From a virus (taxonomy: Duplodnaviria > Caudoviricetes), in IMG/VR virus record IMGVR_UViG_3300032288_001094, positions 1 through 61,482 of that record: DNA of 61,482 nt; one strand, given 5' to 3'. How positions within the stretch are numbered: the first letter of the stretch is position 1; the number at the start of each line of letters is the position of its first letter. A model generated the notes under the pieces. It worked only from the letters and a program-made list of their open reading frames with translations. It searched no databases and was not told where the DNA came from. A program made the translations under genes and the position numbers. Below, one piece after another: positions 2,586-48,923 of the stretch.

Positions 2586-4334
2586 ATGGCTACTGCTCCG
2601 ACTGTTCAACAACAGCAAATTGAATACCTGACCGGCTTTGCGCCGCAGATCGCTCCGTACGCTGAGCGCCTGCTCGGTGGTGCCGAGAGCACGCTGTTTG
2701 AATATGCGCGTGATGCGCAGGGCAACATCCTCAAAGACGAGTCGGGGATGCCCAGGATTTCCGGGTTCAAGCCATACATGCAGTACCAGGGCGAGCGCTT
2801 TGCGCAGTTCAGCCCGCTGCAGCAGCGAGCCTTTGCCGGTGCAGAGCAAATGCGGGCGGCGCCTCAGTTGCGTGATGCTTCAGCCATGCTTGGCACTGCC
2901 GGTCTGCGGGCACTTGCCTACGACCAGTACAAGCCTGCGCAGTTCGGCAATTTTTATCAGCCGGTAGCGTCTTATCAACCCACGGCTTTCACGGCTCCGG
3001 GCGTATCTACCCGCGACTTGACGACCTACCAGATGGGCCCGTCAGAGCGCGTAACTTCCCGTGAGTTGGCGACGCCGCAGATGGCCACGGCCCGGACGGG
3101 TTACACGCCCAACTTGCAGACGTTCCAGATGGGCCCGGCAGAACGCGTTGCTACCGAGACGTTTGCTCGTCCCGGATCGGCAGAAGCCTACATGTCCCCC
3201 TACATGCAGAGTGTGGCGGACATTGAGAAGCGCGAAGCTCAACGCCAAGCGGACATCGCTGCCACTTCTCGCGGTCAACGGTACGCCCGTGCCGGTGCGT
3301 TTGGTGGTGCGCGTCAAGCCATCGAGAACGCCGAAGCTCAGCGCAACCTTGCACAGCAGATGGGCGACATCCAGTCGCGTGGACTGCAGAGCGCGTTTGA
3401 TCGTGCACAACAGCAGTTCAACGCTGAGCAAGCCGCCCGGATTCAGGCGCAGTTGGCCAACCAACAGGCAGGACTGACCACGGGTCAGCAGAACTTGGCC
3501 GCACAGTTGGGTGTGCAGCAGTTGGGAATCCAGACCGGACTTCAGACCGCGCTTGCCAATCTTAGCGCTGAGCAACAGGCCAACGTCCAGAACCAAGCGG
3601 CTCAACTCCAAACGCAGGGCATGTCTGCGCAGCAGGCGTTGCAGGCTGCACTTGCCAATCAGCAAGCGGGCTTGACCACTGGTCAGCAGAACTTGGCGGC
3701 GCAGCTTGGCACCCAACAACTTGGCGCACAGCAAGACCTTCAGGCTCGCCTTGCGGAGCAGCAAGCGCGTATGCAGGCGCAGCAGATGGCTGAGCAGTCT
3801 CGTCAGTTTGGCTACGGCAACCTGATGCAGCAGGCTGGACTCGGCGCTCAATACGGTCAGGCTGCTGCGCAACTCGGTGAACAATCACGCCAATACGGTG
3901 CGGGCCTTGGGTTGCAGGGTCTGCAGGCTGCGATGCAGGCCGGTCAAGGGCTTGGCAACATCGGCCAGACCGAGTTCGGACAGAACATGGCCATCAACCA
4001 ACTGCAAAACCAGTATGGTGGTCAGCAACAGCAGCGCATGCAGGACATCCTGAATGCCCAGTATCAGGACTTCATGAACGCGCAGAACGCGCCGTACCGC
4101 CAACTTGGGTTCATGTCGGACATCATTCGGGGTGTTCCGCTCACGCAGACTGGCACGTCTGTGTACGGTCAGGCACCGTCAATGACTTCGCAACTTGCCG
4201 GTCTGGGTACGGCGGCTATTGGTGCGGGCAAGCTGTTCGGCGGGTTTGCCGAAGGCGGCGAAGTGGAAGATGTCGAGTATCGAGAGAAGCCCGCAGGTCT
4301 GGCTGATCTGGCAATCTACAACATGGGGCGTTGA
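2586..4334 (+). CDS. Putative ejection (DNA pilot-like) protein, Gln/Ala/Gly-rich
   Basis: 582 aa with YMSPYMQSV...AGAFGGARQAI motif and a duplicated LANQQAGLTTGQQNLAAQLG; AAGGAA SD. Confidence 0.6.
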   Translation: MATAPTVQQQQIEYLTGFAPQIAPYAERLLGGAESTLFEYARDAQGNILKDESGMPRISGFKPYMQYQGERFAQFSPLQQRAFAGAEQMRAAPQLRDASAMLGTAGLRALAYDQYKPAQFGNFYQPVASYQPTAFTAPGVSTRDLTTYQMGPSERVTSRELATPQMATARTGYTPNLQTFQMGPAERVATETFARPGSAEAYMSPYMQSVADIEKREAQRQADIAATSRGQRYARAGAFGGARQAIENAEAQRNLAQQMGDIQSRGLQSAFDRAQQQFNAEQAARIQAQLANQQAGLTTGQQNLAAQLGVQQLGIQTGLQTALANLSAEQQANVQNQAAQLQTQGMSAQQALQAALANQQAGLTTGQQNLAAQLGTQQLGAQQDLQARLAEQQARMQAQQMAEQSRQFGYGNLMQQAGLGAQYGQAAAQLGEQSRQYGAGLGLQGLQAAMQAGQGLGNIGQTEFGQNMAINQLQNQYGGQQQQRMQDILNAQYQDFMNAQNAPYRQLGFMSDIIRGVPLTQTGTSVYGQAPSMTSQLAGLGTAAIGAGKLFGGFAEGGEVEDVEYREKPAGLADLAIYNMGR

Positions 4335-6109
4335 GCATGATTCCGAACGTCAACCAGTTCACTGAGCAGTTGCGCATGATGCCGGATCAGGCATTGCAGC
4401 GCATAGCGCAGATGTACAAGCAAGACCCGTACATCCTGCCGATGGTGATTGCTGAGGACATGGCGCGAAAGAAAGTGCGCCAAGCAGCCCAAGCGCAGAT
4501 GGCGCAGGGCCCGCAGCCAAAAGTGGCGGATCAGGCCATCATGTCGATGGGGCAGCAGCCCCAGGCAGCGCCCGGTATCGCCGCCTTACAGGCGCCGAAT
4601 ATGCAGAACATGGCTGATGGCGGGATCGCGGGCTACGATGATTTTGCTGAGCGCAGCGAGCCCGTTGTGCGCATGGCTGAGGGTGGTGCAGTTCAACGGT
4701 TCCAGTCAGGCGGCATGCCCGTATTGCGCATGCTAGAGAACATTCTTAGTATTGACCCTGACTTTGATGAGCAGGGATTGCCGCGTACAAAGCAAGAATC
4801 GGCGTCTATTCGCGCACGACAAGAAGAAGCCCGCGCCAAAAAACAACAGATTGAAGACTATGCCGTTGGTATGAATACGCCGCCGCGCGAATATCAACAG
4901 CGTATGGATCAGTTCTATGGTCGTCGCGGTGTGGCGCCTACCGGTAAGGCAGTGGCAGCGCCTGCGGCCACTGCTGCGCCTACTGCAGCTTCTGCATTGC
5001 GCGAACCCCCGCTGATCAACCCCGAAGTCGGGCCCGGACAACCATACTCTCTCGGTGCCGAACCTTCTTCAAGCACGCTTGCTTCTCCTCCCGCGCAACC
5101 TTCGGCTTCACAAACGGCACTCCAAGCACTGTCTGCTCCTGTATCTGGTGGACGCCAATCGTCCATCTATGACCTTACCAATCCGGCCACTGCGCGCTCT
5201 GTGGCCCAAACACTGGCGCCTACCAACAAGTACGAGACCGCGTTTAATGTCCAGCAGCAGCGCGAGCTTGAGCGACTGGAAGGTCGGGAAGCCGAGCGCG
5301 AGCGAAATAAGCCTACTGGCAAAGCTCGTGAGGGGTTGGAGGCGCTGCTCAAGCAAGAGGGTGAAGGTGCAGCAAAAGAAAGAAGTGACGCTGGTGCGTT
5401 TGCGCTCATCAGTGCTGGCTTGGCAATTGCGTCTGGGGAGTCGCCCAACGCGCTGATGAACATTGCCAAAGGCTTGAACGTCGGCGCTAAGGAATACCAA
5501 GCAGCCATCAAAGACCTCAAGAAGGCAGACCGTGAGCGCAAGCTCATGCTGGCCGACATCGAAGAGGCTCGCCGCCTTGAGGCCAAGGGTGACTACGATA
5601 AGGCAGAAGATCGCAAAGATCAGGCAAACGAACGTAGGACAAGCATCGAACGCTACTCGATGTCTGGCATCATGCAGTTGGGCGTCAGCCAAGACCAGTT
5701 GACCGGCAGCTTGTTCGGTAAGGGTGTAGAGGCGGCGGCACGCCGTGATATTGCAGGCATGGAGATTGGCGCTGCAAATCAGCGGGCTATCGCGGACATC
5801 CTTTCGCGCAGGGAACTTGCAAGCATGCCCGGTGCACAGGAGCGCATGATTGAGCGTCTTGGAGAAGGGGACTTCAACAAGGGTTATCAGCGGTTCCGTC
5901 AAGAAGGGCAGATGCCAAAACTTTATGCTGACTACGAGAAGTTGACTGCTGACACAACACTCAACCCGCTCACAGGCAAAACAAAGGGTCGTGAGTTCCT
6001 TGCCAAGTACCCGACGTTTGACGCCTACATGTCTGCATTTGAATCCTCGCAAGGGGGTGGAGGTCGTGGCCCAAGTGCGGTAAGCTCAGACCCGCTTGGA
6101 ATTCGCTAG
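4331..6109 (+). CDS. Putative ejection/internal virion protein
   Basis: 592 aa, coiled-coil C-terminal half, overlaps the upstream stop (alternative ATG at 4337). Confidence 0.55.
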   Translation: MSMIPNVNQFTEQLRMMPDQALQRIAQMYKQDPYILPMVIAEDMARKKVRQAAQAQMAQGPQPKVADQAIMSMGQQPQAAPGIAALQAPNMQNMADGGIAGYDDFAERSEPVVRMAEGGAVQRFQSGGMPVLRMLENILSIDPDFDEQGLPRTKQESASIRARQEEARAKKQQIEDYAVGMNTPPREYQQRMDQFYGRRGVAPTGKAVAAPAATAAPTAASALREPPLINPEVGPGQPYSLGAEPSSSTLASPPAQPSASQTALQALSAPVSGGRQSSIYDLTNPATARSVAQTLAPTNKYETAFNVQQQRELERLEGREAERERNKPTGKAREGLEALLKQEGEGAAKERSDAGAFALISAGLAIASGESPNALMNIAKGLNVGAKEYQAAIKDLKKADRERKLMLADIEEARRLEAKGDYDKAEDRKDQANERRTSIERYSMSGIMQLGVSQDQLTGSLFGKGVEAAARRDIAGMEIGAANQRAIADILSRRELASMPGAQERMIERLGEGDFNKGYQRFRQEGQMPKLYADYEKLTADTTLNPLTGKTKGREFLAKYPTFDAYMSAFESSQGGGGRGPSAVSSDPLGIR

Positions 6110-6119
6110 GAGATAGCCA

Positions 6120-9100
6120 GTGGACCTCAGTGACGTTCGTGCCAGATTCCCTCAGTACGACAATCTGACCGACAAGCAACTGGCGGATGCACTGCACGCC
6201 AAGTTTTATGCGGACATTCCGAAGGCAGACTTCTACGAGCGCATTGGGCTGACCAAACCCAAGTCCGGGTTTGGTGCCGCCTTTAAGGCGTCTGTTGAAT
6301 CGCTCAAGGGTGAGGCCGCTTTGCTTGGCGGCAAGCTCGGCTTGATGAGCGAGAAGGAAGCTCAGCGGTATCAGGCAGAGCAGGAAGACATTGCGCGGGG
6401 CATTTTCCGCCCCACCAAAGAGGGCTGGCTTGAGGCCCCAGGCACCAAGTTCGGTGAGCTTCTTGGCGGGTCGCTGCCTTACATGGCAGCGCCTGTTGCC
6501 GCAGGCGCTGCGGCTATTCCGCTTGGTGCTGCCGCCCCCATCGCCGCTACTGCCGGTGCAGGTCTGGCGTCTTTGGCGCAATTCACCGGCACCAACCTTG
6601 CTCGCCAACTGGAAGCTCAGAAGGAGCGTGGTGAGGAAGTCTCACTTGAGCGGGCCAGTGGTGCTGCTGCCACAGCCGCCGCCGTCCCTCAAGCCGCGCT
6701 TGACATGGTGAGCTTGAAGGCTCTGCCTCTGGTGCGCAACCTGTTTAAGTCAGTCGGCAAAGACCTGACCGAGGCAGAAGCCAAGCGCATCGCCGAGCAG
6801 GGTTTCAAGCAGACTGTTGCCGACTACGCCAAGACCGGAGCGCGTGTTGCCGGTATTGAAGGCTTGACCGAAGCAGGTCAGCAGTATTTCGAGCGCCTGC
6901 AGGCAGGTCTGTCGATTGCAGACGCCGATGCCCGTGAAGAATACATCGACAGCTTCGTTGGTGGTGCCGTGCTTGGTGCTGGCTTGTCACCTGTTGGCCG
7001 CTTTGTTGAGCGTGGTGGTGAGCAGGGCCGTGCCCAAAAGAAACTGGGTGAGGTTGCCGACGAGCAGCGTAAGGCAGAGCGCGAAGCCCAGGCCAAGCTC
7101 GAAGCGGAAGAAGCCGAGAAGCGCAAGCAGCCCGAGTACCTGACTAAACTGCAGGCGGACTACCAAGCCGCCAAGGCAAAGGACAACGCCTACAAAGCCG
7201 AGATCAAGGCGCTTGACGCGCAGAAGGACGACCCTGCCGCGTTGGCACGGGCCAAAGAGCTTCGCGCTGAACACAAGAACTTCCAAAAGACCGAGCTTTC
7301 AGAAATCGTCAAGGACTACAACAAAGCCGGTGGCGCCAAGTTCTTCAAGCAGTTTGCGGAACAACAGCGCGTTGCGGGCATGACTCCTCTGGAATACCAG
7401 ATGGAGCAGCTTGGTGTTAAGTTTCCTGAACAACCGCCCGAGCAACCGCGTGTATTTACGGGCGAAGGCTTTGAGCCTGCGGCTAAACGCGACGCTGTTG
7501 CAGAGTACGCAACAACGCAGCTTGATCTTGCCCGTCAGCAGGACATGGGGACGTTTACTGAGGCAGATTACGCCCAGTACCTCATGCAAGACCCCGACAT
7601 GGCTAAGCAGCTTGTCGCGGCAAACGCTCAACTTCCTGGGTTTAACAAGAAGCAAAGCACCGCCATTCTGGGCGGCATGAAGCTGCAACTGCAGCAGCAA
7701 GCCAAAGAGTCGTACGCAGGTGCAACCGACTTGCTCAAGGCGCAGCGCACAGAGCCGCAACAACTGTTCTTGGATCAGTGGCAACAAGATCAAGAGGCGC
7801 TTGACGCGGAGCGCAAGGAAAGTGTTTTTGATACCAAGCTGACCGAACTGGTCAACACCGCATTGCAGGGCACGCCTACTGTAGAGGCGCCTGAAGGTGC
7901 AACGGTGGATCGGCGCGGTGCTGTATTCCTGCAGCGTTTGGATGAGGCTATCGCCCAACGAGATGCTGCCGCCAAGGCAGCAGAGCAGGCGTTTGCTGCG
8001 GGCAACCGCGAGGCTGGCGCCGCCAAGAGCAAAGAGCGCGAGAACGCTCAACTGGTGTTGAACCAGATCGAGCAGCAGGGTGGCAACGCATCGCTTATTT
8101 CTAGCCTCCGCAAGGAGCAGGACAGCGCCCTGATGGACGCGGCAGGTCTGATTGACGACTTGCGCAGCGGTATTACCCTGGGCGACAAAGAACAGAAAGG
8201 TGCGGCGTCTTCCACCGCCGAAACGCTTCGCGCCCAAATTGATAAGGCGCGTGCTCGGTACATCGACGCGGCAGTCAAGGAAGCTGCTGCCACTCAGCGG
8301 ATATTTGGCAAGGCGCTATCTCAGGACGACGCGCTTAAGGCTGCACTTCAGATGCAGCAGGTCTTTGATGAGTGGGTGACGCGCTCCGCAGCCAAGCCCC
8401 GAAAAGACGTAGAGGAAGTTCGAGTCAAATCCCCTGCGCAAATGCGGGGGACAAAGATTGTCAAAGGTGCAGAACTGGAAACTTATGACCCACGCCCTCT
8501 TGAGGAGCGTCGGTTTGGTGCCCAGAAGGCTGCTATTGAAGTACTGCAAGAGCAACTTCGTCAAATTTCTAGCCGACTGAGTGCCGTGCCTGAAGAAGGT
8601 CGTCGTGCCGAGTCGCTGCTGCGCCCGCAGTACGCTATAACTGAAGCACAGAAAACGGCGGAAGCGCGTGGTGAGACTGCCGAAACACTGGGTGGTGAAC
8701 TGCGTCGGCGCCGTGAGTATGTGGGCAACCTTATTGATCGTGCGCTTCAGACACGCGAGGGGTTGCCTGATGACGTAGTGCAGGGCCTTGAGCGTGCACG
8801 CGATGCTATTGACGCAGGTCGTGGCGGACGCGATGTGTTGACTGCTGTCAGCCCTGAAGGTAGGGCGGGCCCTGCACCGTTTGCCGCAGGTTTGTTGGAT
8901 GCGGCTGAACAGTTGGCGCAGCGTGCCTTGTCTGGCCGAATGACTACCGTTACGGGTGGTGTCCAGGGTGCGCGTGAACAGAAAGGCTATGACGCACTGG
9001 CGTTCCGCAGAGACGAGATCAACCGCCAGTATCAGGATCAACAGCGGCAGCTTACTTCCGGTGTAGATGAGAATGGTAAGGAACTGACGCCTGCCAAGAA

Positions 9101-12100
9101 GCGCAAGGCGCAGACCCTCTTGGCCACGTATGAGACGCAACTGGAGAATCTGAACAAACGGCTGGCCGGACCTCGGCCCACCGTAGAACCAGTGCGCATG
9201 GGGACGGGTGCAACCACCGGTGAGGATGCCAAGCTGCTGCGTGAGATTGACGACGCCCTGCGGCTGACCACACCCGAAGAAGGTGCGCCTAAACAAGGCG
9301 AACTTTTTGCTGAAAAGGAACTCCCGGCCACCGCATTCGCCCGTGCGACTGCTCGCAATTTTGAAAACTCACCGCCCGTCAAGAAGGCGCGCGCTGCGGT
9401 GGAGCGTGGCAAGAAGTTGCTGGCCGATGTTAAGACCGCTTGGGATGCCAAAGATGCGCAGGACAAAGCGCAGCGCGAACAAAAGGTTGGTGAAACCCAA
9501 GAAGCAATTGCTAAGCAGCGCGAGGTTTACCGCGAAACATTCCAGGCTGCGCTGAAGAAAGCGCAGGTGGCGGAGATTGTTGACCGCTTCCAGAAGGAAA
9601 TTACGGCGGCGCTGCAAAGCCTGCAAGCGGTGAGCAAGGAGCGTGCTGCGGCTGTAGCTGCAGGTGACATGGACGCGGTTCGTCTGATTGATGTAATCCG
9701 TGACGAAGAGCGTGGTGCCCTGCTTCAGTTGCAGTCCGATCTGGCCAAAGCGCTTGAGAAGCCAAGCCAAAACATCGAGCCTGCCAAGACTACCGGCATG
9801 CGCGGCTTTGTTCTGTCGTCTGAAATTCAGGCTGCTGCTGACGAGTGGGTTACGTTTGAGCGGGACCGTCTGACGAAGCTGGAAGGCAAACTTCAGCGCC
9901 TGCAAGGTGCGGACAGAAAGGAAGCCGCCAAAGAAGTGGTTGCGCAGCGTAATGCGGTGCAGGAAGCCACCATCAGCACTGGCCGCGCCATGTCTGGGTT
10001 GGGCTTGCCGGGTGTTCGCGTGCAGGCCGGTCGCGTGGTGCCCATTAAGACCGCCAGTGAGCTTGCCGCTGAAGAGCGCGAGCGCAGAGACGAAGCCCGG
10101 AAATCGGCCGAAGCCAAGGCTGCGGCTACAGCGGAACGCGAGCAGGGTCTTGAGGGTCGCATCCTTGAGATTGGCAACGAAGTTGCCGAGAAGAAAGCTG
10201 CAGTTGACCGTGCCCGCACAGACGCCACCAAAGAGCGTTTGAACGCCGAGATCACAAAACTTGAGCGCGAAGCCTCTTTGCTTGAGGCGCAACTTGGCAC
10301 ACCTGAGTTGAGCCGCACTGAGAAGCGCAAAGCTCGCAAAGCACAGAAGACTGGGTTCACCGGCAAGGGTGTTGGCTCTGAGAAAGAACTGCTCGGTACG
10401 GTCAGCGAAAAGCTACGCGATCTTGAGTCTGATGTGCGCAAGCGTCTGCTTAGCGAAGGGCTTTTAAGGTCTCCTGAACAGGTTACAGCGTTGGCTTCGC
10501 AACAACTGACGCCGTATGAGCGCAGGGTGTTGGAGGGCCGCTTTAAGAAACAAGAGACTGCGACGCAGCGCACCAAGCGTTTGCAGGGCGCATTCGAGGC
10601 AATGGCCGCTGAGAAGAAAGGCGCTGAACGTATTGAAGGTATGTACGAGGGTGTTGAGGGTGTGCTCGACTCCGTGCGTATTGGGGACAAAGACATCTTT
10701 TTCTCACGCGGCGCTACACCAAACCCGTCCACCGCCGAAGGGGTGCGCACGGAGTTGGGCAAGGTATTTCCTAACCTGGGGCGTATACAGATTTACGACA
10801 GTGTTGATGCGCTGATTGCTGCCAACCCTGAATATGAAGGACGCATTCCTTCTGACGCCCGAGGCTTTGTTGATCCTTCAGGCAACAAGGCGTTCTTGAT
10901 TGCCGAGAACATCGACAAGGGCCGTGCATTGGGCGTTCTGCTGCACGAGGTCGGTGCGCATATTGGCTTGCGTAACATGCTTGGCGAAGCACAGTACAAC
11001 GCGCTAGTCAAGGCGGTGGAGTCTTGGGAGAAGCGCAACGACGGCAGTACTGAGTCGCGTGTGGCGCAGGCTGCGCGTCGCCGGGTGGAAGCAGCAGACA
11101 CCCCCGCCAGTCAAGTCAACGACGAGCTTCTGGCCTACGCCATCGAGGAAGCAGTAAATGCGGGCGTCAAACCGTTTGAAACCAAGGGTGTCATTGGCCA
11201 GTGGTTGAGCCGGATTGCGTCGCTGTTCCAGAAGGCGCTCCAGAAGTTTGGTCTGGCGCCCAAGGAGATGACTGCGGCTGAACTGGTGGATATGGCGTTT
11301 GGTGCAGCCGGACTAGAAATGCGCGGCGCTGGAGCTAAGGCAACGGGCAGAGGTAAGGAGAAGCTGCTCTTCACCTACGCCGGTGAGAAGGCGGGTGTTG
11401 CCAAGGAGGCACTGCAAAAAGCCAAGGACATGCTGATCAAGGGAGCCCCCCTTGAAAAAGTATGGAACGAAACCGGGTGGTTCCAAGGGCCAGATAAAAA
11501 GTGGCGCTATGAACTGGACGACAGCAAAGCAGATTTCTCTGGGCTAGATAGGGTCTTTAATGCAGGCATGCAGGCCGGACAGAAAGAGGTCAACACCACG
11601 CTTGGTGAGGTGATGGATCACCCCGATCTGTACGCTGCGTACCCAGACATAAAAAACTTTCAGGTAACGTTGTACGATGATCCGCAGGACAATGTTTACG
11701 GATCTGTCAGCGACAAACGTATGCGCGTCAATATTGGCAAGCCCGATATTGAAGGTACGCTGGTACATGAAGTGCAACACTTGATTCAAGACCGTGAAGG
11801 TTTTGGTAAAGGTGGCAGTGCTACTGGGCAGTACATGCGCGGGTACACCACCAAGATGCTAGAAAGCGTGCGCGCGTCTTACGCACGGCAGCTTGATGAA
11901 GCTACCGACGATTTTGATCGGCGCTACTACGGCGATCGCGTTGCTGCAATGGATGCTGCTGTTGCAGCTTCTAGTAAGGTGCGAGGCGAAGTTGCGCAAA
12001 AAATTCGGGAGGCTAGGGCTAAGTACACTGATTTGTCTCAGCAATACGCTGCGTTTAAGGCTGCGGAAGAAGCCGAAAGAGACGCCGCTCAGAAAGAATA

Positions 12101-15100
12101 CGACGCGCTCAATAAGGACATCGACCAACTGTACGAAGAAATTAAACGCTTAAATGCAGTTAATGTTCTTGACCCGCAAATACGGATTTTGCGCAACCAG
12201 CAAGACGAGTTGCGAAAAAAAGCAAACGCAGCGTTTGATAAATCGCTTGGTTTTTCTTTTGCTAAGGGTCGAGATTTTGTAAAGGCTATTGGCAAAGCGC
12301 GTTCTGAAGTTTTTGATACTAAGCTCAACTACAAAAAAGAAGTTGAAGCTGCCGTCGATAAGGCTATTGCGGATGTTGTAGGAAAGGATGCTTTGCTTGC
12401 CAAGTTTGCAAAGCTGACCATTAGCGACTACGCGTATCAAAACCTGCTCGGTGAAGTCGAAGCGCGTGATGTGGGTGAGCGGCGCACACTGACTGAAGAA
12501 GTTCGCCGTGAAACGCGTCCGTACAGCAGCCAGCCACAACGCGCAGAAGAGATTTTGTTTTCTCGTGCGCCCCAGTACAACGACAGCCTCTCAGATGCAG
12601 GGCTCACCGCCGACAAGATGATCTCGCAGCGACCGGGTGTATACGCCCAGTTCAAGCAGAGCATGTTGGGCATGGGGTTCCGCACCCGCTTCCTTGACGC
12701 GCTTGCCCCCCTGGAAAAGGTTTCGGGGATGCTTGGCGATGCCGTCAAAGGCATGCAGATGATGTACTACCTGCGGATGTACGGCATGCGGATGAACTTC
12801 ACATCCCTTGCGCTGTCCGATGGCGTGCCGCAACTGGTTGAGAAGAAGCGCCGTGATGGTGGCACCGAGTGGGTCATCGAGTCTGTGCCCGGTGTGAACA
12901 TCAAGCAGATTGTCGAGCGCTTGAGCCGCAAGGATGTCATCCAGGCCGCAGGCAGCGCCGATGCTGCCAACCGCTTGTTCACCCTGTATCTGGCCAAACT
13001 GCGTGCCGACAACAAGGGCTACGACAAGCTGAACTTTGGCCGCGCTTCTGCTGAAGCCGAACTCAAGGAGATCGAGGCTGAACTGGCAAGCGGCAAGCTC
13101 TCTGCCGACGACAAGACGCGCGTCAAGCAGCGGCAAGAGCACCTGCTGAAGGTGCGTGACTCGCTGCCTACCGAAGCCGACATTAAGAAGGCGTTTGCTG
13201 AAATCGAAGCTGATCCGGTGTTGAGCAAGGCGTTTGCTGACGCCCGCTCGATGTACAACGAGTTCAACCAGAACCTGCTGCGCTTCATGGTGCAGACAGG
13301 CGCGATGAGCAAAGACGAAGCGGATCGCCTGCTACGGGAGAAGGACTACGTACCGTACTACCGCGTGCGCAACGGTGTTGCTGAACTGATGATCGGTGGC
13401 CTGACGCCTGTTCGCATTGGCAACCTGAAGGACAGCCCGCACCTGCAAGAACTGATGGGTGGCGAGGAGCCGATCTTCAACTTCCTCGACAGCAGCGTGC
13501 AGAACACGTCGATGTTGGTCGATATGGCCATGCGCAACATCGCCGTGAAGAACGCGATGTGGGAGATGGCGTCGGTTGGTCTGGCCAAGATCAGGAAGGC
13601 AGGCAGGGCAGGCGCCCCCAAGAACGCGGTGGAGTTCAAGAAGGATGGTGAAGACTGGTACGCAGTCGTGGACACCGAGCACATCGGCATCCCCTCTGAA
13701 CTGCTGACCAAGGGTCTGGCCGGTATCCCGACCATGTTCCCGCAGGCCATCGAGATCATGGGCATGCCCGCCCGGTTCCTGCGCCGTGCCATCACAGCGT
13801 CGCCTGTCTACGCCGGTCGTCAGTTGTTCCGCGACTCGCTGTCCTCTTACATGGCCAGCGGCTCCAATGCACCTCCGGTGCTCGGCGCTCTGCAGCAGAT
13901 TGGCAAAGCCAGTAGCGTGGACAGGCGCGGCATTACGGGTGGTCAGGTGTTCACGGGAACCTCCGAGGACAAGGCGCGTCTGCTGCGTGAGATGCAAGAA
14001 GGTCGTCCGGGCTGGTCTAAGCTGTTCTCCAAGCTGGAAGCAATGTCGATGGAGGCTGATGCCGCCACCCGCCGCTCCCAGTACCAGAGCTATTTGGATC
14101 AGGGGCTGTCCGAGATGGAAGCCACCTTCATGGCGCTTGAGTCGATGAACTTCGCGCGGCGCGGTATCGACCCAAGCGTGCAGTTGCTGACCACGCTGAT
14201 CCCGTTCATGAACGCGCAGATTCAGTCGCTTGACGTGCTGTACCGTTCGCTGCGCGGCCAGATGCCGATGAACGAGCGGTTGCAGATCAAGGAGAAGCTG
14301 ATCGCTCGTGGCACGATGCTCGCCAGTATGTCCATGATCTACGCGTTGTCGATGCAGGACGATGAGACGTACAAGAACGCGCGGCCTGATGAGAAGTACA
14401 ACAACTGGTTTGTGCCGATCCCTGGCATGGACGAGAAGCTGCGCGTGCCCATCCCGTTTGAACTGGGCTACATCTTCAAGGCGCTGCCCGAAGCGGTGAT
14501 CAACGGCCTGTTTGCCGAGCGTGGTGCAGACGAAGCGTTGGATGCGGCCAAGGGCATCCTGCGCAACATGATCCCTGGTGGTGGCAACTACGGCATCCCT
14601 GCCGCAGTCAAGCCGCTGATCGAGGTGGGCCTGGGCAAGTCCTTCTTCACGGGCCGCGATCTGGAGTCTGGCGCTGAGCAAATGCAGGAGCCTTGGGCCC
14701 GCTACCGGGAGAACACGTCCGAAGCTGCCAAGATTCTGGGACAACTGTTCAACATCTCTCCGATCAAGATCGAGACGCTTGTCAGCGGCTACACCGGTAG
14801 CCTCGGCATGGCGCTCATGCAAGCAGCCAACGTGATCCTGCCCACACCTGAAACCGATCTGCCCGAGAAGCGCATTTCTCAGTTGCCGGTGGTGGGTACG
14901 CTGTTCCAACCCAAGGATGCAGCAAGCATCATCGACGACACGTTCGACCGGCTCAAGGACTACACCGCCGCCAAGGAGACCTACGAAGGGCTCGTGGAGA
15001 AGGGTGAACTGGCCAAGGCTGACGCTTACCTGCGCAACAACATCGAGAAGATTCAGTTGGCGTCCATCTCTGGCGCTTACAAGCAGCAGATCGGTGCCAT

Positions 15101-15239
15101 CACAAAGGCGGAGCGTCAGGTTCGCGGCAGTAGTCTGACGTCTCAGGAGAAGCGTGATCTTCTGGACGATCTGCGTCAGGCGAAAATCTTGGTTGCTTCT
15201 TCGGTGCGGGACTCGCTCGGAAGAATAGAAGCCCGATAA
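6120..15239 (+). CDS. Large polyvalent virion protein with two zincin-like HExxH domains, an LPD23-like region and a C-terminal LPD38-like region
   Basis: 3039 aa, AGGAG SD; LLHEVGAH and LVHEVQH motifs; VWNETGWFQGPDKKWRYELDDS (LPD23-like); RVPIPFELG (LPD38-like). Confidence 0.7.
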   Translation: MDLSDVRARFPQYDNLTDKQLADALHAKFYADIPKADFYERIGLTKPKSGFGAAFKASVESLKGEAALLGGKLGLMSEKEAQRYQAEQEDIARGIFRPTKEGWLEAPGTKFGELLGGSLPYMAAPVAAGAAAIPLGAAAPIAATAGAGLASLAQFTGTNLARQLEAQKERGEEVSLERASGAAATAAAVPQAALDMVSLKALPLVRNLFKSVGKDLTEAEAKRIAEQGFKQTVADYAKTGARVAGIEGLTEAGQQYFERLQAGLSIADADAREEYIDSFVGGAVLGAGLSPVGRFVERGGEQGRAQKKLGEVADEQRKAEREAQAKLEAEEAEKRKQPEYLTKLQADYQAAKAKDNAYKAEIKALDAQKDDPAALARAKELRAEHKNFQKTELSEIVKDYNKAGGAKFFKQFAEQQRVAGMTPLEYQMEQLGVKFPEQPPEQPRVFTGEGFEPAAKRDAVAEYATTQLDLARQQDMGTFTEADYAQYLMQDPDMAKQLVAANAQLPGFNKKQSTAILGGMKLQLQQQAKESYAGATDLLKAQRTEPQQLFLDQWQQDQEALDAERKESVFDTKLTELVNTALQGTPTVEAPEGATVDRRGAVFLQRLDEAIAQRDAAAKAAEQAFAAGNREAGAAKSKERENAQLVLNQIEQQGGNASLISSLRKEQDSALMDAAGLIDDLRSGITLGDKEQKGAASSTAETLRAQIDKARARYIDAAVKEAAATQRIFGKALSQDDALKAALQMQQVFDEWVTRSAAKPRKDVEEVRVKSPAQMRGTKIVKGAELETYDPRPLEERRFGAQKAAIEVLQEQLRQISSRLSAVPEEGRRAESLLRPQYAITEAQKTAEARGETAETLGGELRRRREYVGNLIDRALQTREGLPDDVVQGLERARDAIDAGRGGRDVLTAVSPEGRAGPAPFAAGLLDAAEQLAQRALSGRMTTVTGGVQGAREQKGYDALAFRRDEINRQYQDQQRQLTSGVDENGKELTPAKKRKAQTLLATYETQLENLNKRLAGPRPTVEPVRMGTGATTGEDAKLLREIDDALRLTTPEEGAPKQGELFAEKELPATAFARATARNFENSPPVKKARAAVERGKKLLADVKTAWDAKDAQDKAQREQKVGETQEAIAKQREVYRETFQAALKKAQVAEIVDRFQKEITAALQSLQAVSKERAAAVAAGDMDAVRLIDVIRDEERGALLQLQSDLAKALEKPSQNIEPAKTTGMRGFVLSSEIQAAADEWVTFERDRLTKLEGKLQRLQGADRKEAAKEVVAQRNAVQEATISTGRAMSGLGLPGVRVQAGRVVPIKTASELAAEERERRDEARKSAEAKAAATAEREQGLEGRILEIGNEVAEKKAAVDRARTDATKERLNAEITKLEREASLLEAQLGTPELSRTEKRKARKAQKTGFTGKGVGSEKELLGTVSEKLRDLESDVRKRLLSEGLLRSPEQVTALASQQLTPYERRVLEGRFKKQETATQRTKRLQGAFEAMAAEKKGAERIEGMYEGVEGVLDSVRIGDKDIFFSRGATPNPSTAEGVRTELGKVFPNLGRIQIYDSVDALIAANPEYEGRIPSDARGFVDPSGNKAFLIAENIDKGRALGVLLHEVGAHIGLRNMLGEAQYNALVKAVESWEKRNDGSTESRVAQAARRRVEAADTPASQVNDELLAYAIEEAVNAGVKPFETKGVIGQWLSRIASLFQKALQKFGLAPKEMTAAELVDMAFGAAGLEMRGAGAKATGRGKEKLLFTYAGEKAGVAKEALQKAKDMLIKGAPLEKVWNETGWFQGPDKKWRYELDDSKADFSGLDRVFNAGMQAGQKEVNTTLGEVMDHPDLYAAYPDIKNFQVTLYDDPQDNVYGSVSDKRMRVNIGKPDIEGTLVHEVQHLIQDREGFGKGGSATGQYMRGYTTKMLESVRASYARQLDEATDDFDRRYYGDRVAAMDAAVAASSKVRGEVAQKIREARAKYTDLSQQYAAFKAAEEAERDAAQKEYDALNKDIDQLYEEIKRLNAVNVLDPQIRILRNQQDELRKKANAAFDKSLGFSFAKGRDFVKAIGKARSEVFDTKLNYKKEVEAAVDKAIADVVGKDALLAKFAKLTISDYAYQNLLGEVEARDVGERRTLTEEVRRETRPYSSQPQRAEEILFSRAPQYNDSLSDAGLTADKMISQRPGVYAQFKQSMLGMGFRTRFLDALAPLEKVSGMLGDAVKGMQMMYYLRMYGMRMNFTSLALSDGVPQLVEKKRRDGGTEWVIESVPGVNIKQIVERLSRKDVIQAAGSADAANRLFTLYLAKLRADNKGYDKLNFGRASAEAELKEIEAELASGKLSADDKTRVKQRQEHLLKVRDSLPTEADIKKAFAEIEADPVLSKAFADARSMYNEFNQNLLRFMVQTGAMSKDEADRLLREKDYVPYYRVRNGVAELMIGGLTPVRIGNLKDSPHLQELMGGEEPIFNFLDSSVQNTSMLVDMAMRNIAVKNAMWEMASVGLAKIRKAGRAGAPKNAVEFKKDGEDWYAVVDTEHIGIPSELLTKGLAGIPTMFPQAIEIMGMPARFLRRAITASPVYAGRQLFRDSLSSYMASGSNAPPVLGALQQIGKASSVDRRGITGGQVFTGTSEDKARLLREMQEGRPGWSKLFSKLEAMSMEADAATRRSQYQSYLDQGLSEMEATFMALESMNFARRGIDPSVQLLTTLIPFMNAQIQSLDVLYRSLRGQMPMNERLQIKEKLIARGTMLASMSMIYALSMQDDETYKNARPDEKYNNWFVPIPGMDEKLRVPIPFELGYIFKALPEAVINGLFAERGADEALDAAKGILRNMIPGGGNYGIPAAVKPLIEVGLGKSFFTGRDLESGAEQMQEPWARYRENTSEAAKILGQLFNISPIKIETLVSGYTGSLGMALMQAANVILPTPETDLPEKRISQLPVVGTLFQPKDAASIIDDTFDRLKDYTAAKETYEGLVEKGELAKADAYLRNNIEKIQLASISGAYKQQIGAITKAERQVRGSSLTSQEKRDLLDDLRQAKILVASSVRDSLGRIEAR

Positions 15240-44270: not shown

Positions 44271-45200
44271 ATGGCAATCTCTCGTGCCCAACTACTCAAG
44301 GAACTCCTGCCCGGTCTGAACGCCCTGTTCGGCATGGAGTACGCTCGCTACGGCGAAGAGCATAAGGAAATCTACGAGACTGAAAAGTCCGAGCGTTCCT
44401 TTGAAGAAGAAACCAAGCTGGCTGGCTTCAGTGCCGCTCCGGTGAAGAACGAAGGTCAGGCAATCCAGTACGACAACGCACAGGAAGCCTTTACCGCTCG
44501 TTACAACCACGAGACTATCGCCCTTGGCTTCTCGATCACCGAGGAAGCAGTGGAAGACAACCTGTATGACAGTCTGTCTGCCCGCTACACCAAGGCTCTG
44601 GCCCGTGCAATGGCGTACACCAAGCAGGTGAAGGCCGCTTCGGTGATCAACAACGGCTTCAACGGCACCTATGCCGGTGGTGACGGTGTTTCGCTGTTCG
44701 GCAACAACTCGTCTGGCACCCGTGTGGGCCACACCCTGGTTTCCGGTGGTGTGAACTACAACAGCCCGACCGTTGGTGTGGACCTGAACGAAACCGCCCT
44801 TGAAAACGCTGTGATCCAGATCGCAGCGTGGACGGACGAACGTGGTCTGCTGATCGCCGCCAAGCCCACCAAGATGGTGATCCCGCCCTCGCTGATGTTC
44901 GTTGCCAAGCGTCTGCTTGACACCGAACTGCGCGTGGCTACTGCTGATAACGACATCAACGCTATCAAGCAGATGGGTGCCATCCCCGGTGGCTACACCG
45001 TCAACCACTTCTTGACCGACACGAACGGCTGGTACCTGCTGACCGACGTTCCCAACGGCATGAAGCATTTCGAGCGTGTGGCCATGTCCACCTCGATGGA
45101 CGGTGACTTCGACACCGGCAACGTGCGCTACAAGGCCCGCGAGCGTTATTCGTTCGGCTGGTCTGATCCGCTGGGTATCTGGGGTTCTCCCGGAGCCTAA
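44271..45200 (+). CDS. Major capsid protein (Mu gpT-like, HK97 fold)
   Basis: MAISRAQLLKELLPGLNALFG...RYKARERYSFGWSDP; strong SD; followed by a terminator. Confidence 0.85.
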   Translation: MAISRAQLLKELLPGLNALFGMEYARYGEEHKEIYETEKSERSFEEETKLAGFSAAPVKNEGQAIQYDNAQEAFTARYNHETIALGFSITEEAVEDNLYDSLSARYTKALARAMAYTKQVKAASVINNGFNGTYAGGDGVSLFGNNSSGTRVGHTLVSGGVNYNSPTVGVDLNETALENAVIQIAAWTDERGLLIAAKPTKMVIPPSLMFVAKRLLDTELRVATADNDINAIKQMGAIPGGYTVNHFLTDTNGWYLLTDVPNGMKHFERVAMSTSMDGDFDTGNVRYKARERYSFGWSDPLGIWGSPGA

Positions 45201-45211
45201 GTGGTTCTACG

Positions 45212-45243
45212 GAAAAGGGGGCTTCGGCCCCCTTTTCTTTTTT
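45212..45243 (+). terminator. Rho-independent terminator
   Basis: GAAAAGGGGGC-TTCG-GCCCCCTTTTC followed by a T run. Confidence 0.9.
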
Positions 45244-45271
45244 CTGCGGCGGGTGTATAAACTCGACAGTC

Positions 45272-45340
45272 CCAAGATTCCAACCTGCTTGCTGACCGGC
45301 TTGGCGGACTGACCTCACAGACAGCAAGCGCAATTTGAGG
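45272..45340 (+). ncRNA. Candidate double-pseudoknot RNA downstream of the capsid gene (possibly the Mu-gpT-DE motif)
   Basis: Three crossing helices, three GAC linkers, last helix covers the SD of the next gene. Confidence 0.6.
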
Positions 45341-45349
45341 AATTGAAGC

Positions 45350-45655
45350 ATGGCTTCCACTACCTTCTCCGGCCCGGTTACTTCGACCAATGGCTTTATC
45401 GGTTCCATCACGGGCAACATCACGGGTAACGTGACGGGTAACGTGACTGGTAATGTCACGGGCGCTCTGACCTCGACCACCACGACTTCGGCCGCACTTG
45501 GTGCAATCGGCAATGCGGTTAATACGTCCGGCAAGGCTCTGGGCAAAACCCTGTACAACACCACGACCAAGACTTTCTACGTGGCGCAAGGCTCCACTGC
45601 GGGCAGCACGTGGATTGATGCAGGCGACGGCACTACGACCATCACTCCTGCCTAA
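45350..45655 (+). CDS. Virion protein (MASTTFSGPV type) with GN[IV]T repeats
   Basis: 101 aa; GSIT-GNIT-GNVT-GNVT-GNVT. Confidence 0.7.
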   Translation: MASTTFSGPVTSTNGFIGSITGNITGNVTGNVTGNVTGALTSTTTTSAALGAIGNAVNTSGKALGKTLYNTTTKTFYVAQGSTAGSTWIDAGDGTTTITPA

Positions 45656-47729: not shown

Positions 47730-47958
47730 GAAGTCGCAGCAGTCGCTGAAGGACTGGACTGACCAGAAGTGGAGAACCAAAAGTGGTAAACCGTCTAGTA
47801 AAACTGGTGAGCGATACCTTCCAGAAGCTGCGATCAAAGCTCTTTCCCCCCAAGAGTACGCCGCCTCAACCCGAGCAAAGCGAGCAGGCAAAGCCTCCGG
47901 CAAGCAGTTCGTAGCGCAACCCAAGGCCATCGCCAAGAAGACCGCGAGGTTCAGATGA
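47722..47958 (+). CDS. DUF5872-like protein, C-terminal half
   Basis: SQQSLKDWTDQKW...ERYLP; GTG start overlapping the upstream stop. Confidence 0.65.
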   Translation: MTKKSQQSLKDWTDQKWRTKSGKPSSKTGERYLPEAAIKALSPQEYAASTRAKRAGKASGKQFVAQPKAIAKKTARFR

Positions 47959-48923
47959 GTAACGCAACTTTAGGAACGATGGGCGGTACTGGCGCTATCG
48001 ACCCTTTGACCGGACGCATTGACCTCGGTACCGGTAGCAACAGCTACGCTCCTGGGTATGGGCCCCGTGTAAACCCTATGCCGTTTCGTGGCATGCCTGC
48101 GCGGAATCCGCAAGACCGTATGCCTGTGTCGAAGCCGGGTGTGTTTGGGCCTCAACTTGCCGAACTAATTGGGCGACTTCCCCCAACTAATCCAGAACAA
48201 GCCAATGTCATGCTTACGGGTTCCGAGCAGCTAAACAACAGTGGGCGAGCTGTGGCTAATCCACCGACGCCGGGTGGGGTGGATATGGCCGGGTTAAAGC
48301 CGTCCGATATTATGGGGGCGCTGGGACAGCCAGGACGGGGAACTTCGCCGCAACAGTGGAGAAACTTTGTTGGCTCCCTTGACCAGCCTGCTCCTCCGGC
48401 GCAACAACCCCAGTTCAACCCCTTCATGGGTGGCTTGGGCGGTCTGTTCAATCAGATGGGCGGCTACGGCATGGGCTACAACCCCTACATGGGCGGCGGC
48501 TTCGGCGGCTTTGGTGGTGGCTTTGGCGGCGGCTTCAACCCCTACATGGGCGGCGGCTTCAACCCCTACATGGGCGGCGGCTTCAACCCCTACATGGGCG
48601 GCGGCTTCGGCGGCGGTCAGCAGGGCTTCGGCGGCGGCTTCAACCCCTATATGGGCGGCAATAGCTTCGGCGGCTTTGGTGGTGGCCAGGGCTTTGGTAG
48701 CTTCGGCGGCGGCTTCAACCCCTATATGGGCAGTGGTCAAGGCTTTGGCGGTGGTCAAGGCTTTGGCGCTAGTTTCGGCGGCGGTCAAGGATTTGGTGGG
48801 TATAACTCGCAAGGCGGCGCGAGCCCGTTTGGTGGTGGGTTCGGTGGCGGGTTCGGTAGCCGTGGATTTATGAATCAGATGGGTGGCGGCTTCGGCGGCG
48901 GTTTTGACCCCTCGATGATTTAA
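47955..48923 (+). CDS. Low-complexity Gly/Phe-rich protein with GGFNPYM repeats
   Basis: 322 aa, ATGA-coupled; 24-bp tandem unit three times at 48525-48596. Confidence 0.65.
   Translation: MSNATLGTMGGTGAIDPLTGRIDLGTGSNSYAPGYGPRVNPMPFRGMPARNPQDRMPVSKPGVFGPQLAELIGRLPPTNPEQANVMLTGSEQLNNSGRAVANPPTPGGVDMAGLKPSDIMGALGQPGRGTSPQQWRNFVGSLDQPAPPAQQPQFNPFMGGLGGLFNQMGGYGMGYNPYMGGGFGGFGGGFGGGFNPYMGGGFNPYMGGGFNPYMGGGFGGGQQGFGGGFNPYMGGNSFGGFGGGQGFGSFGGGFNPYMGSGQGFGGGQGFGASFGGGQGFGGYNSQGGASPFGGGFGGGFGSRGFMNQMGGGFGGGFDPSMI

Follow-up and report, generated by a model that had tools for sequence, protein, structure and literature searches.

The window, by which we mean the whole stretch of DNA that was analysed, is a virus record of 61,482 bp, complete and carrying terminal repeats (IMG/VR IMGVR_UViG_3300032288_001094; Caudoviricetes). 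On its + strand, a major capsid protein gene is followed by an intrinsic terminator, the hairpin of which stands 11 nt past the stop codon, by a -10-like box, and by an RNA element that begins 72 nt past the same stop codon and leads into a gene encoding a putative capsid cement (decoration) protein (Table 1). A model search found a single copy of the element in the window. Elsewhere on the + strand, a 3039-aa ORF at 6120-15239 carries the large-polyvalent-protein domains LPD38 and LPD23, and a 322-aa glycine-rich ORF at 47955-48923 contains many GGFNPYMGG-like repeats and had no Pfam match; no phage RNA polymerase was found among the eight large window ORFs that were scanned.

Table 1. Features of the locus between the capsid gene and the cement-like gene (positions in the window).
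Feature	Position	Strand	Remarks
Major capsid protein gene	44271..45200	+	Pfam PF25209, 47.8 bits; PF10124 Mu-like_gpT, 25.5 bits (cut-off 20.1); PHROG 371 major head protein
Intrinsic terminator of capsid gene	45211..45246	+	12-bp stem, 4-nt loop, T run; hairpin 45211-45238 (terminator scan)
-10-like box	45254..45261	+	TG then TATAAA; predicted transcription start near A45268
P1 5' strand	45272..45276	+	pairs with 45300-45304; CCAAG/CTTGG
L1 linker	45277..45285	+	5-9 nt across the family, pyrimidine-rich
P2 5' strand	45286..45294	+	pairs with 45322-45330; 9 bp including wobble 45286/45330
Unpaired A between P2 and P2.1	45295	+	A in 93/95
P2.1 5' strand	45296..45298	+	pairs with 45305-45307; 3-bp helix added in this analysis
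P1 3' strand	45300..45304	+	apical loop of the P2/P2.1 hairpin
P2.1 3' strand	45305..45307	+	brackets the P1 3' strand together with 45296-45298
Unpaired A and C	45308..45309	+	A 95/95, C 94/95; followed by 3-nt spacer 45310-45312, then P3
P3 5' strand	45313..45317	+	pairs with 45336-45340
Unpaired G and A	45320..45321	+	just 5' of the P2 3' strand; G 94/95, A 95/95
P2 3' strand	45322..45330	+	partner of 45286-45294
P3 3' strand	45336..45340	+	contains Shine-Dalgarno GAGG 45337-45340, 9 nt before ATG
Downstream gene	45350..45655	+	101 aa; conserved N-terminal anchor, five GN[IV]TG repeats, variable remainder; capsid cement/decoration-like family

The element folds as one long hairpin, composed of P2 and P2.1, whose apical loop pairs with the 5' tail (P1) and whose internal loop pairs with the 3' tail (P3), giving an RNA of about 80 bases with four helices and the overall shape of a three-way junction locked by two pseudoknots; from P1 to P3 it spans 64-74 nt across the family. 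A first-pass annotation, made from the letters of the window, had described a double pseudoknot in the order P1-P2-P1'-P3-P2'-P3', and the letters and coordinates that it gave for P1, P3 and a 7-bp P2 (45287-45293/45323-45329) agree with the window sequence. All three helices are present, but P2 extends over 9 bp in the window rather than 7, and the fourth helix, P2.1, had been overlooked.

Taken by itself, the window is only modest evidence for this fold, and the comparative data are decisive. The minimum free energy of its nested fold (-24.0 kcal/mol) shows no excess of stability over shuffled sequences (-24.3 +/- 3.3 kcal/mol, z 0.10), and among 1000 dinucleotide shuffles of 45262-45349, 32 could form three helices that cross in this order and measure 5, 7 and 5 bp or more, and one equalled the best score of the window. 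A search of viral contigs with the capsid protein returned at least 600 stretches, 599 of them confirmed relatives, and the best 80 (79-93% identity) were taken for comparison. The DNA 3' of the capsid stop codons in the relatives presents complementary segments in the same order, spelled in quite different letters. In a structure-blind MAFFT alignment of 65 distinct sequences, P1, P2 and P3 were paired in 88.0% of cells, as against 29.8-42.3% with slid partners, and 21/21 pairs had changed on both sides, with 265 compensatory cells compared to 73.9 +/- 8.4 in shuffles.

Two models were built, R1 from P1 and P3 only and R2 from P2 and P2.1 only, so that the unmodelled helices served as the test in each case. 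R1 gave one + strand match in the window, one in phage DSL-LC04 and matches in 76 of the 80 loci (the best 80 of at least 600); the four loci it missed either end soon after the capsid gene or have other ORFs following the capsid gene within the flank. In the R1 alignment (A2), the unmodelled P2 was 90.9% paired and 10/10 of its pairs had changed on both sides. R2 matched 95 of 98 sources, and in the 95-sequence alignment obtained with it (A4) the unmodelled P1 was 98.7% paired and the unmodelled P3 columns stood at 80.6% and 84.7%; a per-sequence search located a P3 of at least 5 bp in 95/95 of these sequences, and 6/6 P3 columns change on both sides. The middle pair of P2.1 occurs as all four Watson-Crick types (UA 44, AU 37, CG 9 and GC 5 of 95), with 100% of cells paired, and an outer P2.1 pair has also switched in two sequences.

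Genome contigs contributed 27 additional matches among 53 loci, many of which are incomplete, and our own parser recovered the crossing architecture in 36 sequences outside the alignment used to build R1. With a second seed, a capsid protein 56% identical to that of the window, the element was detected in 50 of the best 80 loci of at least 600, three of which lie on contigs already sampled, and the resulting alignment (A5) had the unmodelled P1 98.7% paired and P2.1 100% paired. The element is thus abundant among the best loci of both capsid searches. Altogether, 139 distinct sequences were obtained, with 14 versions of P1, 33 fully paired versions of P2 and 6 versions of P2.1, and the 14 distinct, fully complementary P1 strand pairs account for 140 of 145 sequences; all covariation counts given here are per sequence and not per evolutionary event, the metagenomic relatives not being independent of one another.

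All significant model matches lie on the strand of the capsid gene, and G-U or U-G cells outnumber A-C or C-A cells (82 vs. 28), indicating that the structure is selected in the + strand RNA. The compensatory changes across the 139 distinct sequences show that the double pseudoknot is real and is read as + strand RNA. The architecture proposed in the first-pass annotation was therefore correct, and the covariation among relatives that it had suggested looking for is present in all helices, on structure-blind and cross-modelled alignments and again with the second capsid seed. Fold, strand, position and the link to the downstream gene family, which is described below, are established. The same data bear on a signal at the DNA level, such as a homing-endonuclease target or a recombination site, and on chance complementarity. 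Homing endonuclease genes have indeed inserted nearby in several relatives, but the insertions are found upstream of the promoter and not inside the element, and the letters of the helices differ completely between lineages while pairing persists. Covariation and the asymmetry between strands contradict both readings, to which we assign next to no probability.

Two alternative pairings were tried and not adopted. A long P1 preferred by the parser, in which 45267-45272 pairs with 45306-45311 over 6 bp, would be a competitor of P2.1 and would occupy the A and C that are invariant in the junction; it conflicts with the fully paired P2.1 and is limited to five near-identical sequences of the window type (the window, L003, L051, L066 and L068), among which there is too little variation to test it. 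A 5' hairpin between the P1 5' strand and the start of P2 was paired in 75.6% of cells compared to 35.5-48.2% with slid partners and had 15 compensatory cells compared to 5.5 +/- 1.9, while its pair-type measures did not rise above shuffles, and we consider it weak.

Five unpaired bases, A45295, A45308, C45309, G45320 and A45321, are nearly invariant (93-95 of 95 sequences) though every helix has changed. They sit at the meeting point of P2, P2.1 and P3 and flank the P3 5' strand on both sides, which makes the junction the obvious site at which a partner might read the fold. These bases belong to the GAC triplets at 45294, 45307 and 45320 that had been annotated as three linkers spaced by exactly 13 nt. 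The triplets are there, as are further GACs at 45265 and 45311, but they are not linkers, since two of their bases pair with bases of other GACs: G45294 of the first with C45322 of the third, forming the innermost P2 pair, and C45296 of the first with G45307 of the second. The innermost P2 pair itself varies (GC 71, AU 14, GU 3, UA 1, unpaired 5 and gapped 1 of 95). As for the spacing, it is true of the window but peculiar to its subgroup; the first two GACs stand 13 nt apart in 83/95 sequences, whereas the second and third are separated by 11 nt in 77/95 and by 13 nt in just 8/95.

The TATAAA at 45256-45261, which the first-pass annotation had considered a possible promoter box, is present in the window, and its suggestion of a separate promoter is probably right. 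Among the 95 relatives, a -10-like box is located 5-13 nt upstream of P1 in 88; in 78 the TAnnn[T/A] hexamer stops 7-10 nt short of P1, with a mode of 9 nt (41 sequences), and it reads TATATT in 43 and TATAAA in 12. A -35 hexamer beginning with TTG at a spacing of 16-18 nt accompanies 52 of the 88 boxes, and an exact TTGACA 14 of them. TGTATAAA was found once in the 61-kb window, both strands counted. The predicted start column, about 3 nt before P1, is A in 55/95 sequences, and from these sequence features we infer that transcription starts about 3 nt upstream of P1. Contigs from RNA libraries cover 45260-45387 in three of four runs, with depth near zero over 45196-45259; they represent relatives of 85-99% similarity and are uninformative on transcript starts and levels. 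Terminator and promoter also overlap in the window (45211-45261) and related loci: where the element directly follows the terminator, the -35-like TTG falls inside the terminator loop, often exactly 17 nt before the -10 box. 

At its other end the element adjoins the ribosome-binding site. The first-pass annotation had taken the P3 3' strand to be the Shine-Dalgarno (SD) sequence of 45350..45655 and had proposed that the fold masks it. The first statement holds in the window, where SD and P3 overlap by 4 nt, and masking is plausible for the subgroup of the window, but it is not general: in the 95 sequences the SD overlaps P3 in only 24, begins 0-1 nt after it in 56 and begins 2-6 nt after it in 15. 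Thus, the P3 3' strand overlaps the SD or lies within 1 nt of it in 80/95 sequences, while the SD itself is unpaired in most of them, and simple masking can be neither the general nor the whole mechanism. Of 46 sequences inspected from the second set, 10 lack a P3 of 5 bp or longer, and in these the SD appears, by eye from the sequence, to lie in a small local hairpin. One subgroup of A5 (L144, L146, L148, L150, L152, L154, L155 and L164) keeps P1, P2, P2.1 and the junction bases without a recognisable P3, and its SD is, by eye, in or beside a small A/U-rich local hairpin. L1 was also tried as an anti-SD sequence on account of a 5-nt match in the window (45277-45281/45339-45343), but this was rejected, as matched L1/SD pairs scored 8.2 compared to 8.56 +/- 0.22 for permuted ones in the 95 sequences, with 949 of 1000 permutations scoring at least as high, and hence no covariation.

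The tight coupling to the SD would not be expected of a put-like processive antiterminator, which would act on RNA polymerase and allow read-through of a long structural operon. The element does stand directly after a promoter, and some 16 kb of structural genes on the + strand come after it, but terminator-like sites downstream are not in excess (16 against 15.6 +/- 4.1 expected), and one genome has two copies of the element in front of two adjacent genes. We therefore regard antitermination as very unlikely.

No Rfam 15 family matches the element, and its family is absent from that catalogue. The Rfam comparison, which the first-pass annotation had recommended, gave 0 matches at the gathering score in the window and 0 in 20 related loci; at E <= 10, matches within 45150-45420 fell only on the terminator hairpin or on coding sequence at 45383-45420, with none inside 45262-45349, and at E <= 1 none fell on the element in 14 diverse loci. 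The same annotation had mentioned the Mu-gpT-DE motif, which is Rfam RF03012 (PMC7657543), as a possible identity, but this lead was not confirmed, there being no match on the element in the window, the 20 loci, the 14 loci or five complete genomes. When RF03012 was run against the window and its four complete relatives, 0/5 exceeded the 49-bit cut-off, and the weak matches (<=15.1 bits) were all away from the element. Both RNAs occur in metagenomic phage sequence, where a gpT-like major head gene precedes them; compared by model score and length, however, they differ, the RF03012 model having 53 positions (gathering score 49 bits) whereas the element spans 64-74 nt. A literature search on Mu-gpT-DE, on phage pseudoknots and capsids, and on double pseudoknots with a decoration protein found no description of the element. 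A catalogue from 2023 lists 8,495 unnamed candidate structured RNAs from IMG/VR intergenic regions, some within 25 nt of gene starts; its main text does not describe the element, which may be among the unnamed candidates (PMC10690425).

Three groups of known RNAs resemble the element in part, and we take them as functional analogies and not as relatives. In phage T4, the 5' leader of gene 32 likewise contains a pseudoknot, which is linked to translational control (PMC10690425). This leader differs in being a single H-type knot, compared to the four-helix double pseudoknot of the element, and in that the gene 32 protein binds nucleic acid, whereas the product downstream of the element is cement-like and no nucleic-acid-binding domain was found in it. 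The exonuclease-resistant RNAs of flaviviruses and plant viruses join two pseudoknots to a three-way junction, the 5' end taking part in one of the pseudoknots. Here the likeness in topology is loose, since the wiring is reversed, the 5' tail of the element pairing with the apical loop and its 3' tail with the internal loop; moreover, the element comes from a bacterial virus and no Rfam xrRNA family matches it. In translational riboswitches of the SAM-II and preQ1-II kinds, a pseudoknot has its 3' strand at or in the SD and conserved unpaired bases adjoin it, as in the element, but there is no match in sequence or structure, the element precedes a structural gene, and its SD is outside the helix in most members.

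This last likeness raises the idea of a small-molecule riboswitch, in which the junction would form a ligand pocket and the ligand would stabilise P3 and alter ribosome access. An architecture like that of pseudoknot riboswitches acting on translation, invariant unpaired bases on both sides of the P3 5' strand, and a P3 that adjoins or overlaps the SD would all suit such a sensor. However, the gene it would regulate encodes a virion structural protein rather than a metabolic or transport function, no ligand suggests itself, no known riboswitch family matches, and alternative pairings are little supported (the 5' hairpin and the L1/SD pairing described above), so that we find a riboswitch distinctly improbable. 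Small ribozymes are common in phages, and the junction, which is compact and pseudoknotted and has an invariant C besides a few invariant purines, could be that of a new ribozyme, one that cleaves itself and so processes the transcript close to the cement gene. Yet hammerhead, twister, pistol, hatchet and HDV-like models had no match in the Rfam scans of the window, the 20 loci and the 14 loci, and the probable promoter directly upstream would make processing unnecessary, which leaves this possibility as slight as that of antitermination. A resemblance to the hammerhead, a CUGANGA-like string after P1 in the main type, was rejected as it is absent from the other lineages and has no Rfam hammerhead match.

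The gene that follows the element belongs to one family across the relatives. In 103 of 105 element matches, those with enough downstream sequence, a readable ORF of the cement-like family begins at the 3' end of the element, and the other two loci end right after the start codon. The ORFs start with MAxTTFSGPV-type sequences in 82 cases, with MGFATHLGPW in 14 and otherwise in nine (four MALSTTQSIW-like, three close variants of MAxTTFSGPV, one MANPHFQNM and one locus ending after two codons). Members of about 150 aa that carry the three N-terminal types align over their full length, and in many other members the first ~17 residues are common and the remainders hypervariable. The protein of the window is a short form with five GN[IV]TG pentapeptide repeats, its relatives ranging from 63 to 248 aa with unrelated C-terminal parts.

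Sequence searches with the downstream protein were uninformative: no solved structure came up as a meaningful match (best E 0.13 and 0.48), neither PHROGs nor Pfam was of use, and the ESM Atlas returned unnamed viral clusters only. An AlphaFold (AF2) model of a relative of about 150 aa (L016; pLDDT 66.6), with which the 101-aa protein of the window shares only the N-terminal segment, had as its top three fold matches in the PDB 7eel_H of cyanophage Pam1, 8h89_J of Ralstonia phage GP4 and 7dn2_1 of Helicobacter phage KHP30. The best matches were all cement proteins (of Pam1, GP4 and KHP30/KHP40), the top three having E-values of 1e-4 to 8e-4 and TM scores of 0.39-0.53. The family thus combines a fold like that of solved cement proteins, as predicted through the model of this relative, with a gene beside the major capsid gene. 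In the capsid of GP4, 540 capsid copies are accompanied by 540 cement copies (PMC9698820). From the fold matches and this stoichiometry, we hold with medium confidence that the downstream gene most likely encodes a cement or decoration protein that is required in large quantity. It is unlikely that this product regulates its own synthesis through its conserved N-terminal arm, because three different N-terminal arms accompany one invariant RNA core.

A fold that starts within a few nucleotides of the predicted start of a conserved promoter, ends at the ribosome-binding site of one gene family and keeps five junction bases leads us to infer a cis-acting leader that couples the 5' end to the SD. 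We propose that the element is the 5' leader of the cement-protein mRNA, with a promoter of its own placed just past the terminator of the capsid gene. Such a leader would fold compactly, with the apical loop of P2 and P2.1 gripping the first nucleotides of the transcript (P1) and the internal loop pairing with the stretch that ends at or contains the SD (P3), so that the 5' end and the ribosome-binding site of the mRNA would be tied into one tertiary unit. Tied in this way, the fold would set translation initiation and the 5'-end stability of the cement mRNA, probably gated through a partner that reads the invariant junction, be it a protein, a small ligand, the ribosome or a nuclease. The product would be a protein of which related phages need roughly as much as of the capsid protein, and the suggestion of the first-pass annotation that a translational switch sets the ratio of capsid to downstream virion protein, here cement, is a reasonable one. 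RNAs as elaborate as this one, which has four helices, two pseudoknots and an invariant junction, usually serve a specific molecular task, such as ligand sensing, catalysis or recognition of a protein or the ribosome. On the other hand, a plain 5' hairpin would suffice for stabilisation, leaving the complexity unexplained. On balance, we give about an even chance to a cis-acting leader that sets or gates cement translation and 5'-end stability.

The main rival is a purely protective knot, which would bury the 5' end and block 5'-end-dependent RNases or 5'-to-3' exonucleases, yielding a long-lived cement mRNA with neither gating nor a partner; the riboswitch, the antiterminator and the ribozyme are less likely than this. 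P1 begins about 3 nt past the predicted transcription start, the fold brings together a three-way junction, two pseudoknots and a set of invariant bases at the junction, the cement product would be needed in high copy number, and the persistence of the element across phages of 30-62% G+C would fit a mechanical role independent of the host. However, protection leaves the close tracking of the SD by the P3 3' strand unexplained, and no Rfam xrRNA family match was obtained, and we judge it unlikely on the whole. Given the invariant five-base junction, the two interlocked pseudoknots and the spread across freshwater and marine phages over this range of G+C, the element could conceivably represent a new functional class of RNA fold in phage late mRNAs, either the first riboswitch-like sensor of a virion structural gene or a nuclease-blocking knot of a bacterial virus, although we put this forward only as a doubtful possibility. 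If the cis-acting leader does gate cement synthesis, it would show how a phage with host-type promoters matches the supply of its decoration protein to capsid assembly.

Viral contigs from freshwater and from the sea contain the element, and so do phage contigs mis-binned into many MAGs. Isolates carry it as well, namely phage DSL-LC04 (34.8 bits with R1 and 49.2 bits with R2) and Pelagibacter phage HTVC023P (56 bits); HTVC027P gave a weak match (15.2 bits, E 0.26), and an uncultured Manatee Spring phage, the capsid protein of which is just 38% identical, scored 29 bits. With R2, filters off and E <= 1, none was detected in Roseobacter phage CRP-902, Alcaligenes phage vB_Af_QDWS535, Caulobacter phage RW and Planktothrix phage Pag-Yong1.

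As a compact unit of promoter, leader and SD, the module resembles a natural expression cassette, which moves as a unit and has duplicated. The promoter stays with the RNA where a homing endonuclease gene separates the RNA from the capsid gene. In L014, a GIY-YIG + NUMOD3 homing endonuclease gene (4054-4806) lies between the capsid terminator and the promoter-RNA module; the same insert, judged by its N-terminal motif, occurs in L004, L019, L036 and L051, and in loci of this type the RNA still has a full TTGACA-type promoter, which follows the insert. At the same spot, L005 (4015-4617) has an inserted ORF of another kind, about 200 aa long, and similar ORFs occur in L008, L011, L045, L054, L066 and L077; by eye the L005 ORF has an HNH-like C-terminal motif, and it had no Pfam match at E <= 0.01. 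While four other complete relatives have a single module, one complete genome (G005, the record of L077) carries two tandem promoter-RNA-gene modules on its minus strand (321-409 and 64004-64099), each before one of two paralogous cement-like genes. In the second copy P2.1 is 4 bp long, one base having been added on each side.
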